Source: Rhina ancylostomus
Taxonomy: Eukaryota
Assembly: GCA_030265395.1 (NCBI GenBank)
Contig: JARFYF010000084.1
Span: 74,600,065 to 74,664,064 of the forward strand
Direction: 5' to 3'
Length of the DNA stretch: 64,000 nt
Shown: positions 47,071 to 59,779 of the stretch, piece after piece
Position numbering within the stretch: the stretch's first letter is position 1
How the letters are laid out: the number at the start of each line of letters is the position of its first letter
The notes under the pieces: generated by a model
Database searches by the model: none
Told to the model about the DNA's origin: nothing
What the model saw: only the letters and a program-made list of their open reading frames with translations
Made by a program: the position numbers and the translations under genes

Positions 47071-48651
47071 ATCCCTAAAAGTTAGATTGGGCTATTTTAA
47101 AGATCTGAATTAACATACACTGATATTATCAAGCTAGCACCAACCAGAATTTCTACTTTAATATTCTAGGAAAGGGGCCAATTCGCCTTGCCTGGGGTCA
47201 GCAAAGGGAGGGGGACGGTCTGGAGAGGCAGAGAGGGAAATTGGTATCACTGGCACAGACATAATTTATTGTCCATCCCAAATTGGCCTTGAACTGGGGN
47301 NNNNNNNNNNNNNNNNNNNNNNNNNNNNNNNNNNNNNNNNNNNNNNNNNNNNNNNNNNNNNNNNNNNNNNNNNNNNNNNNNNNNNNNNNNNNNNNNNNNN
47401 NNNNNNNNNNNNNNNNNNNNNNNNNNNNNNNNNNNNNNNNNNNNNNNNNNNNNNNNNNNNNNNNNNNNNNNNNNNNNNNNGGATGCAATGATATCAAAGT
47501 GACACCAAGCAACATTTCTGATTCTAATATTAACTGAATTGTTTGGTTATTTGTGGACAGACTGATATAGCTTCTAAAACAATCATTGTGCACCAATCCT
47601 TTCATTTTGTCTCATATTGTTTAATATCATTGTGCTCCACTGAAAACTAAATGCTTCATTAAATATTACCACCAGGTGCAAGATATGGGGCTCAAGAAGG
47701 TGCAGTACCAAGGAGCCACGGTCAAATAGTAAATGCCAAATCTAAATTATGAGGCAAGTCTAAAAGTACTTTTTTTTTGGTTAAATTTCATATGTTACAC
47801 AAAATCCATCTATTCCTGGAACAGAGAACTTCCAGCTAATTCAAACAAAAACAAAAACTAGCTGGAAAGGAGGTGGCCAGATGGAAAAGCAAGAATACAT
47901 TCAACAATAAAAAAGGAAATTAGTGCCTTCTACATTCAAACGCAAAACCACGCAAGCGCACATCTGTTTGACTAAAATCTAATTTCATATCCCAGCAACA
48001 GTAACTTGTTAACAAATTGCTAGGCTATCACAACATGACAGACATGTTTGTAGTTTGCCATTTCACTGCTACATAAAATACAATTATCAAGCCAAATTCA
48101 TTAAACAGAACAAGTATTTGCATTCTATGGTTATTCGTTTTGATACCCACCATGGCACAAAGTCACATTTTTGACCTTAAAATAAAAAATGTTACAAATG
48201 TCCATTTAATCTGCCTGTCATGGCACTTGCCTGATTGCATCAAATGCATGCAATTCATAGGGGGATGCAAATTAACTCAGTCTTTTTACAGACTCTACTC
48301 TCTCTGCTGCCTAATGCAAGATTGTTTGAGCTCTTGCCTCTGAGGGTCAGAATGACAGCTTCCCAAAGAATCACTGAGTCATAGTTAAGAGCCAAAATCA
48401 ACGTTCCCTTTAAAATGCACTTCTATCTACCTGCTGCTATGAAGATAGATTTAGAATTTATCTACCAATGAGGTGTGGTGAAACCTACAAGCCAAATCAC
48501 TTTGAACCAGTAAAATGAAACAAGCACAACAGAAGAAGATTTCTCTCACTGACTCTACAGAACGGACAAGCCATTTTCAAGAGAAAGGGATCCACTACAA
48601 CATTTAGCAAATAAATTAGGGTTTTTTTTGGTAACATTTTTCATAACTAAC

Positions 48652-48802
48652 CTCTTTCGAACTGGCCCATCTTCATTCTCCGATGAGCTTGTATCATTTC
48701 CGTCTCCTTTCTGAGATGCATTTGACCCGTCCTCTTTCCCAGTTCCAACTCCTGCCTCGGGTGACAGTATAGGTCCATTTGAGGAACCATTGCTGAGAGA
48801 AC
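48652..48802 (-). CDS. JARID2: JARID2 internal coding exon, 151 bp, equivalent to human exon 3 (low-complexity linker)
   Basis: Translates (G)SLSNGSSNGPILSPEAGVGTGKEDGSNASQKGDGNDTSSSENEDGPVRK(R); the end resembles mammalian SSSDFEEGPSRKR. Acceptor ttttcaccacacag|GT, donor AG|gttagt; the phase 2 end (AG+G = Arg) splices in frame to the exon at 2622. Confidence 0.9.
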
Positions 48803-49594
48803 CTGTGTGGTGAAAATACTGTGGCATCAGTAAACAACACTATAAACTAAACAATATTTAAATAAAACATGCATAATCGCACCAATTTGTACTTTGGCAA
48901 TTTTCACAAACAGGACACTTACAAAAACAAGTTGATGAATACCTCTCAAGGTTAGTTCACCCACGGGCTACATACTTGATATACAGGGTGATCAAAGAGA
49001 GGGGTGGACAATCCAACATTCTTGGCCTGTGTAGGGTATTTCCTTTTGGTGTGGACCTCGTCTACTTGTTCTGAACAAGAGCATAGCAACCAAACATAGC
49101 AAGCAGACGCCCCACAGTTGCACCATTCACCTCAGGGGAGACTTTTCTGGACCTGCCAACCAAAACAGGGCTGTGACTAAAAGTGGCCCAGGAAAAATAA
49201 GCTCAGAAAGAAAAAAAAGTTGTGCTGACTAAAAAATAAAACTTGGTGAAAGATGAGCTCTGCTTGGGACTGTTCCTCACTGCCTTCATCTGTGTTGTCC
49301 TTTCAGTTAATATATCGCGTGTTAAAAAGATGAACTGAATTCATTACAATCTTACATATCCTCAATAGTCCAAGCATTGCAAGGGACTCATTTTCCATCG
49401 CACAGAAGGACATTTCAGTAAGTCTCTGAAGTGTTCCCCTTGACCAATCCAAATATTTCATATTATTGAACAACTACCACAAAAAGTCAGCTGAAAAATT
49501 GATTGCTTTGAAGACATTCAACAATATTAAGTGGTTTGTTCTCACAGATGCATCTTCAAAAAAAAATGAATCACAAGACAGGGAAGATGGGGCT

Positions 49595-49759: not shown

Positions 49760-50035
49760 GCACTTTTGTCTGTATTATCACCTCTGACTGCCCCAATGAT
49801 CCATTTGACCATTATACCCAATGCAAGCCTGGCCTCATCCTAACCAGAGCTATTCCCCTTGTCCAATCCATCCCTCCCCTGCTGTTCTGCATTAACGTGT
49901 TTTCCCCAGTTCTGACAAAGCATCTACAGCTTTAAATATTAATTCTGTTTCTCTTTCCGCAGATGTTGCCTAACCTGCTAAGCATTTCCAGCACCTTCTA
50001 TTTTGGATTTCCAGCATCTGCAATATTTGCGACTT
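49760..50035 (+). mobile_element. Penelope-like terminal repeat remnant
   Basis: ttccccagttctgacaaag..tctctttccgcagatgttgcctaacctgctaagcatttccagca..tttccagcatctgca. Confidence 0.65.
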
Positions 50036-52596: not shown

Positions 52597-53440
52597 CCAA
52601 GGACAGTATGGTCAATAACTCAGGAGATGAGAGAGCATTGGTACAGGATAACATGGGGGAAATTAACAAGCAAATGTAACATGGTGGGGCAGAAAATGTA
52701 AAAAATGGTTGCAGGGTGACCAGGAATGGGTGCTTGATATTCCAGGTTATATGATATTCCAAAAGGACAAGCCTAAAGAGAAAGGAGCAAAGTAGCATTG
52801 TTAATCAAACAAGGTATTAGAGCAGTGTTGTGTCATGATATGGAAACAGTGGATAGTAATGTAAAATTGGTTTGGGTTGAAATCATGAATAGCAGAGGAA
52901 AGAAGACATGGGTGGTAATAGTCTATAGGCCTCCAAAATGTGACCTCTCGATAGGGGTAGAGCATAAATGGGGGAATATCTCCAGCATGTTTGAAGGAAA
53001 CTGCAGTTGTCATGGGAGAGTTTAATCTACATATCCATTGAACAAATCAAACTGGCAAGTCTATCAAAGAAGAATTTGCAATGTGTGTCAGGAACTGGTT
53101 CTTAGAACAGCAAGTTACAGAACCTACTTGCTAACTGGCTATTTTAGATTTGGTCATGAGTAATGGAGGAGGATTAATAAGAGATCTTGTAATTAAAGAT
53201 CCGCTTGGAGGTAGTAACCATAATATGCTAGTATTTCAGATGCAGTTATAGGGTACCACAGGGCAAAAATCACCACCTTCAACTTAAAGAAGGGCAATTA
53301 TATAGATATGAATGAGTTGTCCAAGCTGGACTGGGAAAATAAGCTAAGAAACTGAACAGTATCTAAAGTTGTATACAGTGAAGAGGAGTATCAAGAATTA
53401 GTGGGATCTTAATCAGCTGGATAGGTGTGCATAGACTGGG
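52597..53440 (+). mobile_element. CR1-clade LINE ORF2 APE-endonuclease remnant, internally deleted
   Basis: IPGY, VYRPP, VVMGEFN, AILDLV and PLGGSNHN motifs, then a jump to the RT-side gatcttaatcagctgg segment. Confidence 0.85.
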
Positions 53441-53684
53441 AACAGAGCCGGCAGAAGGGCAGACCCGGCGGTGTTGCTGCAAAGTTCTCAGCTTTGCGCT
53501 TTGAAGAAAAAGGTGCAACTGGAAGAAGTTAAACGTTGGTTTAAAAAAAAATCAGATTTTAATCAACCTGCGCTCGGCGGCAGTTTGTGGCGCCCTTTTG
53601 GAAGATTTGAATGCAACCGCTGGATCTATTGGTGGTGTGCACAAAGCACGTTGGGGCTTTAGGTGTTGCAACTCTCCAGCGGTG

Positions 53685-53897
53685 ATGAGCTGCTCCGAAT
53701 CGCTGCTTCGCCCCATCCGCAGGAGCGCATGGATCGTGGGCGCTCTGTCCCATTACTTCGGCTCGGAGAGCGCCCAGGAGGACAACGAGATTGTGGTTCT
53801 GGCTATCGGCACCGACCAGTACCTGCAGGAGATATTCCAACACTTGAGCTACCAGGGAGACGGGCTGGTGTCGGCCGAGGACTTTTCCCAGTTCTGA
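53685..53897 (+). pseudogene. EFCC1/CCDC48-like N-terminal gene fragment (70 codons), truncated by a Penelope-type repeat; putative 5' UTR from about 53440
   Basis: MSCSESLLRPIRRSAWIVGALSHYFGSESAQEDNEIVVLAIGTDQYLQEIFQHLSYQGDGLVSAEDFSQF* resembles the recalled EFCC1 segment [41 protein letters not shown]; EF-hand-like loop SYQGDGLVSAEDF; GC- and CpG-rich relative to flanks. Confidence 0.78.
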
Positions 53898-54200
53898 CGG
53901 AGGGTCTCGGACCCAAGGCGTGAACCATCTCTCTCTCCCTCTCCACAGAAGCTGCCTGACCTGCTGTGGATTTCCAACATTACTGTAAACTACCACTAGA
54001 ATACAGGCCGCTAGCAACAGTCAGGAGGTCGGGCAGCATCCGCGGAGAGAGAAGTGGTGACATTTCAGGTCGATGACCTTCCTTTAGGGTTCGGAGGGAG
54101 GGTTAAGAGCTGAAATGCCAACAATCTCTCTCTCCACGGACCTGTTGCACCTCTCAGTTTTTATTTTGGATTGCCAGCATCTGCAGGATTTTATTTCTCA
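53885..54200. mobile_element. Cluster of Penelope-like terminal repeats (+, -, +)
   Basis: cccagttctgacggagggtctcggaccc..ccacagaagctgcctgacctgctg; reversed copy at 54015-54085; forward copy at 54100-54200. Confidence 0.75.
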
Positions 54201-54429
54201 TCGGGAAATGACACTGAGGATAAGGCTACGTGGCGCCCAGCGAGAGTGTGCTGCTGTTGCCCACGGGAGACCTCGTTTCTGAGGTGCATTCCCCCACAAG
54301 ACTTCGAATGCCCCCCCTTTCCCCCGGTCTGATAGGGTGGGTGGAGTTGGATGAGTGGTGATGGGTTCTAAAGCAAGGAAGAATCATTGTGATTGGTAAA
54401 TGGAAAGCTGAACAGGCCTAGAAGGTCAT

Positions 54430-54537
54430 CAACACACAAGATGCTGGAGGAACTCAGCAGGTCAGGCAGCATCTGGGGAGGGAGGGAGGGAAATGGTCAG
54501 TCAACATTTCGGGTCGAGACCCTCCATCTGGAAAGTC
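54430..54537 (-). mobile_element. Penelope-like terminal repeat with hammerhead-like core
   Basis: Reverse strand CAGATGG-A-GGGT-CTCG-ACCC-GAAA-TG-TT-gactga..gatgctgcctgacctgctgagttcctccagca. Confidence 0.8.
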
Positions 54538-56797
54538 TGTCTGTTGTACATGCAAGTTGCCATAAATACCAGTACAAAACCATGAAGAGGAAAAAAAAAG
54601 AGAAAAAAAAATCAGTAAACAAGATTTTGCAGAAAATGAGCATAATACAATGCCACATCCATAAAAATATTGAGGTAGCCATCTGATTAATAATTTCAAC
54701 ATCTTATTAATAACCTGAAAGGCAGCAGACAATAAGTTGGCTTCTCAAAACAATAAGAAATGCGTTAAATGCACAAATACTAGCAACATCATTAAATAGC
54801 TTTAAATTTCATACATGCCCCAGACACTGGAAACATTAATGTTCACACAGCAGTTTGACTGAACTTGCAAAGCCCTACTGGATACTTACAGATGTCCTTA
54901 TTGTACCCCCGAACAATGTTGCTGCACATCACCAAATAAATTAAGTATTTCAACAATGATGCAACCTTAACCTGGGTCAGGATTACAACAGCATCATCAC
55001 AACGGACCTAAGCAGCCCAGGCTGTAACATACATAGATCTCTGATGTGCCCTGCTGCAGATGTAGAAACATACACACAAAAGTCAAACAGCCCCAAGACG
55101 CACTGGTCAGACTCAAACACAATAAACTTCCATTTGGACACATAACTGCAAGCTTCCGCTGACTACAGAACTCCATCCAGACCCCATTCTTCCTTCAGGA
55201 GACTGAATACTGCTTTTTAAGCTTGCTTTATGCCATTGTGGTATTTAGCTTTGTATGGGATGTGTCATCATTCCATGTATCGTTTACTGACAAACAAGTT
55301 GGCTGTTGCCATTTAAGTGTAAGAAATTCTACAAATGTGGGAGGGAGGGTGAATCTTTTGTTGAGTACATGCTTTTCAGCCAAGTTGAGCAGTCATCAGA
55401 ATTGTTCTCAAGGGTTAACAGAGAACGTCAATGTGCAAGAAAGGTCAGTGTTTGAAATATTTCATGAACAGATGCCCAGATGCTGTTCGCTGTCAAGAAG
55501 CATATGTTCCCCTGCCATAGACGGGAACAGCAGTACGCAAGATTAAAATCTGGGAGACAAAGTCAATACAACACAATGCCACGCACATGAAAAAAAACAG
55601 CACTGCATAACATTTCCCTGGCAATGAATGCCAATGGAGACAGTGCACTGGTTCAACTGCAAGCTAAGAATGAGTTAAATGCAAAATCACCAGCAGCACT
55701 CATCAGCTACACAATATCTACAAAGAGAATGCCGCACAAAGCATTCAAGCCATTATTTACTAAATTATCACAGGAGTCACGTCTACTGCGAGGCCTGCCT
55801 GAGCAGACCTAGGCAAGCTAACATTGCAAGGATCGTAAAATACATCAAGCGACGGCTCAACAGTACACAGCCCTTCACTGCATCCTTGATAAACAATCTA
55901 CGTTCTTTCCCGAATCGTGCACCTTGGACTGCGGTAGAGGACAGATGGTGGATGGTCGACATCGTCGCAGCCTTTGCCGATGGCATTCTCCAGCCAGCTT
56001 GGTGAGCTGCTAAAGCAGAATTCAAGATGAACCCCCTGCTGATTTCCACTTCCATCAGCCCGAATCCTCACTGCCGTTGAATGCTGTACCACATGACCAA
56101 AGGTGAGCTCAGTAACTCGCTGGCTTCAGGAATCCAAAGTGCGAGTCTAACCAGAGGCTCGGATTTTCTCCTTTTTTAAAAAAAAATAATCTCCAATCAA
56201 GCTCTTTCCGCTTGAGATGGGCTACAATTCAATTGAAGTAGCTGTAACCACTTCAGGAATCTGAGGAAACACACATCAGATTTAAACTATAGTTTAAACA
56301 AAAGGGATATTTATTGCCAATTAGGACACAGGCTCACCAGGCAAGCCTTTTGAGAATTACATCCTTTACATGTCAAGCAAACATCTGCTATGGCTCAGCC
56401 CAAAAGGAGTCACATGACCACTGCACTGCTTCAGTCTACCAGGGAAATTTGTCAGCAGCACAAATCAGAGCAGGTTTCCTTCCTTGTTGCTCCACCATTC
56501 CAACTTGGTTTCAGCTACACTCAAGACTCAGGCATTCCATCCTCTGCAATTTTACATGTCATCCCTCAAAATATTTTCAGTTTCCAGTATTCCAACAATC
56601 AAAAAGTTTAACCAAATACTTCCGAATTTATTCCAATGCATTAGGCACAGCAGGAACAGAAGTATCCTTAGATTCGACCCCATTCAAAGGTGAAAGGTGG
56701 ATTTTGCCCAGTTAGTATAAAACTGATGCAAACATAGCAAATTTCCCATTCTGTTCCATTGATCAACTGGTTTAAAGATACACAAGGAGGGGAAAAT

Positions 56798-57275
56798 TGG
56801 TAAATCGGTTTATTATTGTCACATGTACTGAGGTACAGTGAAAAACTTTGTTTTGCATGCCAGCGATACAGATCAGTTCATTACAATAGTGCATTGAGGT
56901 GGTAGAAGGCAAAGCAGTAACAGAATGCAAAATAAAGTGCTACAGTTGCAGAGAAAATGCAGTGCAGGCAGACAATAAAGTGCATGGACATAATGAGGTA
57001 GATTGTGAGGTCAAGAGTCCATCTTATCCTACTAGGGGAGCGTTTAATAGTCTTATAGCAGGATAGAAGCTGTCCTTGAGGCTGGTGGTACCTGCTTTCA
57101 GGCTTTTGTATTTTCTGCCCGATGGAAGGGGGAAGAGGTGAGAATATCCGAGGTGGGTGAGGTCTTTAATTATGCTGGTTGCTTTACCAAGGCAGTGAGA
57201 AGTGTAGATTCCATGGAGGGGAGTTTTGTTTACGTGATGTGCTGGGCTGTGTCCACAACTCTTTGCAGTTTCTTG
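56798..57275 (-). mobile_element. Rex1/Babar-like LINE 3' end
   Basis: Reverse strand KLQRVVDTAQHIT..SIIKDLTHLGYS..PSGRKYKSLKA remnant and the shared UTR. Confidence 0.85.
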
Positions 57276-57467
57276 TTACAGGTGATAACTCCCACTCTTG
57301 TTAGGCACATGTGACGTGCTGTACCTTTCAATGGCAGCGTTCAGCTTATCCATTATCTTCACATACTGTTAAGTTGGCAAAGACAACACAATCTGCCTGA
57401 TAGGAAACCAAGCAGGGCCTAAAATACCCCTCTCACAATTCTCACAGGTAACCTGTACAACTCGTTA

Positions 57468-57781
57468 CAGGCCCTCCCTGGGTTAAAAATAATCAACTTA
57501 TGGACACCCCATATACGAATGAGCTCCCATAATATTAAATTCAAACGTCTGACATGCATACGCACATTCGCTCCTATGAACAGAAGACTAGTTTCTTCTT
57601 TCTCTCCACTTTTAGTAACTGTTCTTTATCAGGCTTATGTTCTTTAGATGCCATTCTTTACAATACTGTACAGGTATGCTTACCATATTGAGCACTTTTG
57701 TGTATTTTCTAATTTATGGAAAAAAATCAACTTGTGGATGTCTGTAAAAACTGAACCCATTCATAACCCTGAGACAGCCTG
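57468..57781. mobile_element. Tigger/Tc1-mariner-like MITE
   Basis: TA|caggccctccctgggtta ... taaccctgagacagcctg|TA: imperfect TIRs with a TA target duplication. Confidence 0.75.
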
Positions 57782-59779
57782 TATAAATGCCTCTTGAGTA
57801 GGACACTTTCTCCACAGCTAAATGTTTGGTCACTTCAGAATTAGAAAACTTTTAAGAGTGGATCTTAAAAATAATGGGAGGAAGTTGTTCCAAATGAGGA
57901 AAAGGCTCTGGTGAGGCAGTGGTATTGCTTTAAAGAACAATGGTATATCCAGGAGTTATAGATCAATTCCAGAGTTGCACTCTCACTTCAGCACGCATCT
58001 CAGTCTTCAGATCTGGTGCCAAAGGGTAGGATCATACAAGATCAGCTTCTCCTCCACAAAAAGGCAGAAGAATAACTATATACTTAACAAGGATATGAAG
58101 CATTAAAGAGGTCTTCCAGTACCAGGCTGCAGGACTGATTATTCGTTTGTCATGCCTGAGGATGTTTAGATCAGTAGCAACAATGCACGCTTTACAGACC
58201 AGAATTCAAACTGAGGACCTCCCAAGTTTATGGCCCTGTGCCACATGCTAACAGGAAAAGAATGCTTGTTCTTTAAACATATCCATTTGTGAACATTACG
58301 ATCAAAATATCCACAAACATTTGCATATCTTTATGTATGAAGCAGGAGGGCTTACCCAATTAAAGTATTTATTTTTATAATAATGAGTTTTCTCATTAGC
58401 AATTAAATCCTCAGAACTACAGCAAAGAAAGTTGGACAGATAAAAGAGGGCACTGAATGGTTATACTCAACACTCTTAATATCAACCAACATTTCCATTT
58501 TAATGAAAAGTTTGAGTTATCCAAAAGTGAATATCCAAGATGTCCAAAATTTGACAACATTGCAAGGATCTGTGATATTCCCCACAGCAGAACTGTCTGG
58601 TGGCAAAACAAAAGTCTAAAATCTGGTTTCTGTAGCCCATTGTATTTAGGAGGAAGGATCAAAGTTAAATGAGTTTCCCAGCCCATTTTCTTTACACCTT
58701 CCTGATCACATAGGTCTGCCCAAACTTAGGGTGTAGATGTAGGCAATGTACTTTCAGGCTGAAATAAAAATAGAAGATGCTGGAAGTACTCAGCATATCA
58801 GGCAACTTTGTGGAGAGAGATACACATACAGAGTGATTGATTCAGGTTGATGGCCATTCAGGCTTTTGCACCTTTCATTTACTCAGAAGTCACTCTTTGT
58901 CCCAGTACTGGCCACCTCAGCCAGATAGGAACGCAACACATTTTCCTCTATGGTGCTTCAAGTATATACTTTGGGCAAGCCTCAACCTTAAAAAAACAAC
59001 CATCATAAACACTGAAGATAAAGAGTGGATTTTCCTCAAACTAACTGTAACAAAGAGCATGGGACATGTCTTGAACAAAGTTCAAAGCTCAACTCCATGG
59101 ACACCAGCNNNNNNNNNNNNNNNNNNNNNNNNNNNNNNNNNNNNNNNNNNNNNNNNNNNNNNNNNNNNNNNNNNNNNNNNNNNNNNNNNNNNNNNNNNNN
59201 NNNNNNNNNNNNNNNNNNNNTGTTCAGACATGAGTGAAAGACCTTTCCAATATTAGACAACGCAAACTCATTTTCAGATACTTTTTTTTATTCCAAAACT
59301 GCACCAATTTAACACATGCACTGGTTTCCTAACAGGATTAATACTGCAGCCATCTTAAAAAGGGCAATTCCTTCCAAATTCCAGATTATTAAAAGGCAGC
59401 ATATTTGCATTAATTACAATAACTTTTCACATAATGGAGGAGAAAGTAATGGATATTATGCCTTTGTAGATAGGACAGGAGGTAACTGAGACCATGATCA
59501 AATACAATGGCTTTACAGATTGCTTTTAAAATTCAGGATGTAGGTTGGTGGGAAGGGATTTAAGCAGAGAATGATGTCATTAGCATCACATGACGGTGTC
59601 CATACAGCTGAACTTTGTTCAAGGCACGTCCTGTGCTGTATGTTACAGCTAATTTGAAGAAAATCCTCTCTTTATCCCCTTCAAGGTGCCCGCTAGCCCT
59701 ACCACCAATTAATGAAGTAGATGGAGAAGTGGGGTGATATTAGCAGAAGGGCAGAGCCAGGGAGCCAAAGGATATGGAG

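Follow-up and report, generated by a model that had tools for sequence, protein, structure and literature searches.

How did the 5' end of one gene come to lie, in an open frame, antisense inside an intron of another gene, and why is its stop codon read from a hammerhead ribozyme core? This question is raised by a stretch of 64,000 bp from Rhina ancylostomus (GenBank assembly GCA_030265395.1, contig JARFYF010000084.1, positions 74,600,065 to 74,664,064), hereafter called the window, to whose own numbering all positions refer unless a donor contig is named. The original prediction described an uninterrupted 70-codon open reading frame (ORF) starting with the ATG at 53685 and nested antisense in JARID2, and it attributed this frame to a template switch of a Penelope reverse transcriptase (RT). 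The frame and its orientation are confirmed by the ORF list and by the location of JARID2 on the minus strand, whereas the proposed mechanism is not upheld: the insert (53428-54321, about 894 bp) is a chain of three copied pieces from three unrelated genomic sources. It had been missed that the hammerhead-bearing repeat belongs to the second of these copied pieces and that a third one follows.

The insertion site in JARID2

The site lies in JARID2, which is encoded on the minus strand (PDB match, E 1.2e-28). Its exons for residues about 65-119 and about 116-174 are situated at 48642-48806 and 2448-2624, respectively, both on the minus strand, and the one for residues 15-67 falls outside the window, at the equivalent of 77002-77160. 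As the insert is located between the exons for residues 15-67 and 65-119, the gene fragment lies antisense in JARID2 intron 2, a placement made by scaffolding, as the block concerned (52597-59108) is bounded by N stretches on both sides. Besides the assembly itself, assembled contigs from five of 15 listed runs (X1, X2, X3, X8, and X14) were compared; none of the listed runs was marked as RNA, and X14, labelled as probably DNA, stems from another organism. The comparisons among organisms A to D concern short contigs among those listed, with one species each for B, C, and D.

The left flank (52597-53427, plus strand) is an old remnant of a CR1-type LINE, truncated as originally described: it is cut inside the RT coding part at 53427, and its paralogues in the genome go past the equivalent of this position into more RT-like coding sequence. 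The best of its many genome copies exhibit 74-79% identity to the remnant over about 600 nt and 84-92% over 45-62 nt, and a near-identical donor was found neither for 53300-53427 (best 40 of 150 candidates) nor for 52597-53300 (best 40 of 967 candidates). A contig of organism B matches 53048-53427 with 8 differences and then continues for 74 nt more. The right flank (54326-56800) is single copy except at about 54430-54528, where the terminal repeat recurs in inverted orientation, no second genomic match having been found for 54300-54445 or 54540-56800. Contigs of C and D match from 54326 onwards and are preceded by 491 (C) and 329 (D) other bases, such that a deletion of at least 0.5 kb is likely at the site.

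An imperfect likeness of 11 nt exists between the end of the left flank (53417-53427) and the start of the right flank (54329-54339); it is probably due to chance and could be a relic overlap. Further to the right, the CpG-richer stretch 55783-56100 lies within a block of JARID2 intron 2 that is well conserved in B and D, and no JARID2 frame was found in it.

The three copied pieces and their donors

The ORF (53685-53897, plus strand) extends from its ATG to a TGA at 53895-53897 and encodes 67 EFCC1-like residues, after which S-Q-F-stop is contributed by piece 2. The peptide had been assigned to the N-terminal region of EFCC1/CCDC48, and it indeed matches the Pfam family CCD48 (PF15799) above the cut-off (E 8.9e-16, 57.8 bits, cut-off 30.4); as this match covers profile positions 5-63 of 578, the peptide is a fragment of the family. 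Among named proteins, the EFCC1-like ones of rays and skates come closest (82-94% identity), headed by one of Pristis pectinata (P0002, 94% identity), which then reads EDF-RLLC. A search of the genome with the peptide yielded three matches, namely the window itself, a paralogue with 53% identity on contig C94, and C53:7786404-472.

The C53 locus is the parent, and thus the prediction of a captured host 5' fragment with its parent elsewhere holds. The DNA at G000:C53:7786408-7786471 is identical to window 53821-53884 (64/64) and is followed by a 100-N gap where the remaining 5' end belongs, such that only 64 nt of the donor are visible in the assembly and the rest falls inside the gap. Past the copied part, the C53 gene gives matches to residues 46-617 of P0002. 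In contigs of C and D the match to the window spans exactly 53428-53884, these contigs continuing unlike the window at either end, and piece 1 is therefore a 457-bp copy (53428-53884, plus strand) of the 5' end of the EFCC1-like gene. It comprises a leader of 257 nt (53428-53684), present as predicted and longer than the about 245 nt then estimated, and 66 2/3 codons, all within a single exon region. The genomic contigs of C and D are collinear with it, and the contigs of B and D read into the next codons of the parent gene past piece 1. No upstream flank of the parent that overlaps the start of piece 1 was found in 40 kb of C53 or genome-wide.

Two EFCC1-family genes exist in this genome (on G000:C53 and at G000:C94:18864626-18865729), with 47% identity over the matched part of P0002. 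The one on C53 is without a start codon in the assembly, through the gap inside the duplicated piece, and its first coding region is interrupted between ALQK and VYT by a repeat-filled GT-AG intron of ~850 nt (C53 about 7785110-7785970). Both ends of this intron read GAAG/GT, and the C94 paralogue is uninterrupted at the same point; the intron is possibly a transposon insertion at a duplicated splice-like site. Furthermore, both donors with a visible end (C53 at its gap, and the donor contig of piece 2, C10555, at 1831) break inside the duplicated piece. A contig of B (run X2) ends at window position 53469 in 20 letters that resemble a sequencing adapter, and its 5' end is uninformative on the breakpoint.

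Piece 2 (53885-54214, plus strand) is a 330-bp copy from an intron of a nucleoside-transporter (SLC29A-type) gene, to which it is antisense. Its donor is located on an unplaced contig (G000:C10555:1586-1831) that is identical to window 53965-54214 at 240 of 250 positions and ends at the equivalent of 53965; in the other direction, past the equivalent of 54214, it passes into a nucleoside-transporter exon on the opposite strand (PF01733, E 6.3e-20). The extent of piece 2, which includes the repeat, is set by a contig of D, whose match begins at 53885 and is preceded by 455 other bases, and by a contig of B that continues past 54208.

The repeat (53885-53985, plus strand, core 53894-53922) is a decayed, hammerhead-bearing terminal repeat. 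To the right of the gene fragment a Penelope-type terminal repeat had been proposed; this probably holds for its type, whereas its position is inside the second copied piece. The exact core pattern was found in 8 intact-core copies in the genome and in 0 control matches. In the alignment with these eight copies, the window repeat keeps the CUGA box, the UGA of which is the stop codon of the ORF as predicted, and 5 of 12 core positions are changed (A9, G12, A14, A15.1, and position 17). The core numbering and the 12 scored positions are those of the hammerhead core; judged by this list and by the eight family copies, the intact catalytic core of a minimal hammerhead is not present. That the TGA falls in frame is a 1-in-3 frame coincidence. 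Since only 3 bases within 53885-53924 distinguish D from the window, at least two of the five core defects are older than the insert. The whole window gave 0 Rfam matches at the gathering score, and minimum-energy folds of the repeat core were not informative. At one of the eight family loci the repeat is immediately preceded on its 5' side by a GIY-YIG-like frame (PF01541, E 0.028, below the cut-off), and the family probably represents a Penelope-type terminal repeat. As the repeat lies inside piece 2, was already present in the donor of D, and fails at 5 of 12 core positions, it is a dead passenger from the donor intron that likely had no part in the insertion.

An assignment of the repeat to the JARID2 intron as a resident was dropped, its donor having been found on C10555. 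Further decayed copies of the family are located at 54430-54528 (minus), 49895-50030 (plus; the copy near 49902 already named for comparison, which is indeed of the same family), 54016-54075 (minus), and 54120-54192 (plus), some of them close together in opposite orientation.

Piece 3 (54216-54321, plus strand) is a copy of about 106 bp. Its donor (G000:C94:50249890-50250000), to which it is identical at 100 of 106 positions with one 5-nt gap, is part of a CpG island that extends over at least 2 kb. The donor island exhibits a CpG o/e of 0.6-0.95, and no gene was identified there, where 3,096 N adjoin. At position 54247 both letters are found in run X1, and only the donor letter in B, C, and D.

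Origin of the insert

Concerning the joins, the left one is without overlap, the CR1 match of B ending at 53427 and the EFCC1-like match of C and D starting at 53428. At the second join the parent match ends at 53884 and the donor match of D starts at 53885; the family copies allow one shared T, and a shifted overlap of 4-5 bases can be drawn that is not in register. The third join consists of a single base, which is T here but C in the two donors; this is consistent with a 1-base overlap later lost through CpG decay. At the right join the donor match ends at 54321, four C follow as filler, and the flank starts at 54326. The joins share 0, 0-1, and 1 base, and clear microhomology, as had been claimed for the junction of gene fragment and repeat, is not seen. 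A poly-A tract or signal was not found in 53428-54330, in agreement with the original prediction, nor was an exact direct repeat or target duplication found at the two insert ends. Read on the plus strand, piece 1 has the orientation of its source gene, whereas piece 2 is antisense to its own.

Lack of poly-A and of an exact target duplication, joins of 0-1 base, the likely deletion, and mixed polarity together argue for a multi-fragment templated insertion at a repaired break. A double-strand break would have arisen in JARID2 intron 2 in the germline, and three short copies from unlinked loci would, with fair probability, have been joined end to end and inserted in one repair. The templates may have been DNA, captured by end joining or by short template jumps. 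The presumably single event, later than the split from organism B, would have cost at least about 0.5 kb of the intron, the 3' part of the CR1 included, and neutral decay would have followed. A patch made from DNA templates in one event of repair is the best explanation of the insert, and we favour it with moderate confidence.

Less probable, and on balance rather unlikely, is a chain made from RNA, in which a LINE-type RT (CR1, L2, or Penelope, acting in trans) copied nascent transcripts at the break and the products were ligated. Two donors belong to genes and one is a CpG island, in a genome rich in retroelements; class 2 templated insertions are argued to be often, at least in part, derived from RNA in the accessible text of PMC5110952, pieces 1 and 2 lie in genes, and L1 inserts made of two RNAs, whether equally or oppositely oriented, are described in that of PMC11702581. 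No piece crosses a splice junction, and RNA and DNA templates are not directly separable. However, the polarity is mixed, and the outer piece 1 is wrongly oriented for priming from the left end; an antisense RNA of the transporter intron or extra ligation steps would be needed, and poly-A, a LINE tail, and a removed intron are all missing.

Very unlikely is an artefact of assembly, in which the genuine 5' end of the C53 gene was built into the contig together with stray pieces. The 5' end of the parent is missing at its 100-N gap, the donor contig of piece 2 ends inside the piece, the assembly consists of 65,984 contigs, the window contains 15 N stretches, and the left join is unbridged in run X1 of organism A, where 53440-53547 is without cover. 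Against this, the divergence from the donor is 2.4% in piece 2 and 5.7% in piece 3, with changes of CpG type that a misjoin would not create, and the joins would share too few bases for a misjoin in the assembly graph. Furthermore, contigs of X1, a run that may be the assembly's own source and not an independent animal, match 53551-53965 and 54168-54420 with 0 differences each and together bridge three of the four joins, all but the left one at 53427/53428. Their depths are 9.46 and 5.95, compared to 4.91-7 for four flank pieces with 0-1 differences, which corresponds to single-copy depth. Both forms are present in this run, the donor form of piece 2 occurring with 4 differing letters and 4 gaps, as many as are found in C10555 over that span; a contig with the parent's continuation past piece 1 was not found among the X1 contigs listed. 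Since X1 contains donor forms for pieces 2 and 3 and the C53 gene is still present, the pieces were copied, not moved. A second haplotype with an empty site was not found in the assembly (best 40 of 402 candidates). In summary of this evidence, the chain of three pieces is very probably real.

An accumulation of three separate insertions at one fragile spot is equally improbable. It could draw on the uneven divergence from the donors, which amounts to 12 substitutions in 416 compared bases (0/64, 6/246, and 6/106 for pieces 1 to 3); small counts and CpG content, however, could account for this spread, it is improbable that three insertions struck exactly one base pair, and no relative exhibits a partial chain among the contigs listed, in which B, C, and D possess only donor forms and no joins of the window type. 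Of the 12 substitutions, 5 are CpG decay in the copy and 2 are CpG decay in the donor, such that the divergence of 2.9% is reduced to 1.2% without CpG transitions. The flanks of A and B differ at 59 of about 2,616 bases (six listed B contigs), and an insertion after the A-B split fits these values. The insert is likely lineage-specific and fairly young; for its age this agrees with the original prediction, which gave protection as the alternative. Protection need not be assumed, the copy exhibiting CpG decay and an open frame at this age being expected by chance. In 5,000 simulation runs per divergence under the analysis's own mutation model, the frame survived neutrally in a fraction of 0.82, 0.73, 0.53, and 0.36 at divergences of 1, 1.5, 3, and 5%, respectively; with a neutral survival of 53-73% at 1.5-3% divergence, no selection is needed to explain the open frame. 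Compared to both B and D, A possesses five coding changes, three of them protein-altering and two silent (153 N and 45 S sites), one of which removes a proline kept in all five ray and skate orthologues; these changes are not assignable to copy or parent, the donor lying in the gap, and their number does not suffice to test for selection. The ORF is probably a by-product without function.

Least credible of all is the mechanism originally proposed, a Penelope RT that switched at a microhomology from its own terminal repeat to the EFCC1-like RNA and inserted the fusion: in its favour, the hammerhead family to which the repeat belongs has a copy downstream of a GIY-YIG-like frame, the repeat is sense on the plus strand like piece 1, and a shifted overlap can be drawn at their join. 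Against it, the repeat came as part of a 330-bp intron copy from another gene, its core is dead, it predates the split of A and D, it occurs in D where the cargo is missing and hence is no new element end, piece 2 begins 37 nt before the would-be cleavage site, and a third donor follows.

Significance and comparison with known systems

The event is of a known kind and is unusual only in its three donors, none of which was found near the site. Without a sign of function, the chain is one more templated insertion of the repair type. It constitutes an inherited-looking case with three donors in a cartilaginous fish, with donors and breakpoints resolved, whereas the multi-donor chains known so far come mainly from experiments in yeast and from tumours. 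Two cautions follow for the reading of similar loci: a repeat beside a captured gene piece can have been carried along from a different donor, and through such copies a short-read assembly can lack the 5' end of the true gene, as in the EFCC1-like gene on C53. More speculatively, and with a low probability in our view, the chain might be the fossil of a germline process that pastes open, CpG-rich pieces from several chromosomes as one chimera, with promoter-sampling chains being common in ray genomes. This suggestion derives from the fact that two of the three donors are CpG islands and from the enrichment of small circular DNAs for 5' UTRs and CpG islands in the accessible text of PMC6511871. 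If it were true, a ready-made promoter, start codon, and stop would be delivered inside other genes; the case would gain weight if such chains were frequent and biased to CpG islands.

Literature on this locus or on such chains in sharks and rays was not found in a search that covered few subscription papers; further material for comparison is contained in PMC6155905 and bioRxiv 10.64898/2026.07.22.740005, as far as accessible. The statements that follow refer to the accessible text of the respective papers. The repeat family resembles the minimal hammerheads of Penelope elements (Cervera and De la Pena 2014, PMC4209133): both core boxes are present, position 9 is followed by an additional base, the closing pair is G-C, and the helix III region is palindromic. 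The copy in the window, by contrast, is a passenger with 5 of 12 core positions changed. The 3' poly-A tract and target-site duplication of processed retrocopies are not found here. L1 insertions from more than one RNA (PMC11702581) likewise combine several templates in mixed orientation at one site; the examples in the figure legends exhibit a target duplication and poly-A, neither of which is seen here.

Complex templated insertions in yeast and cancer (PMC11724301, PMC3638133) are similar in joining fragments of several loci by copy-paste with microhomology of 0-20 nt. They are experimental or somatic, whereas the present chain is apparently inherited and has aged by about 1-3%. Similar, too, are the chimeric repair-mediated duplications described by Pace et al. 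(2009, PMC2671141), in which a transposon remnant is interrupted by single-copy DNA from elsewhere and exon and UTR pieces are captured; the sizes found here are within their range, and the insertions are equally lineage-specific. Their 20 chimeric cases involve two donors, at least one of them within 5 kb, and the sampled deletions measure 1-15 nt (their Table S1 may bear on this comparison). Here there are three donors, of which two are situated on other large scaffolds and the third on an unplaced contig, the deletion is likely at least 0.5 kb, and no donor was found in the window or 10 kb on each side; C10555 could in principle fill a nearby gap, but C84 contains no PF01733 match.

The chain also resembles class 2 templated insertions (Onozawa and Aplan 2016, PMC5110952), which are short copies of a distant locus, of germline origin, with the donor kept, without target duplication or poly-A, and with a deletion and little homology at the joins. 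The donors found here are situated on C53 and C94, distant from the site, and on the unplaced contig C10555, and they are kept, as indicated by both forms in X1 for pieces 2 and 3 and by a depth of 9.46 compared to 4.91-7 for piece 1. The chain differs from class 2 in its three donors in a row, in a deletion that is likely larger than a microdeletion, and in its occurrence in a cartilaginous fish instead of in humans.
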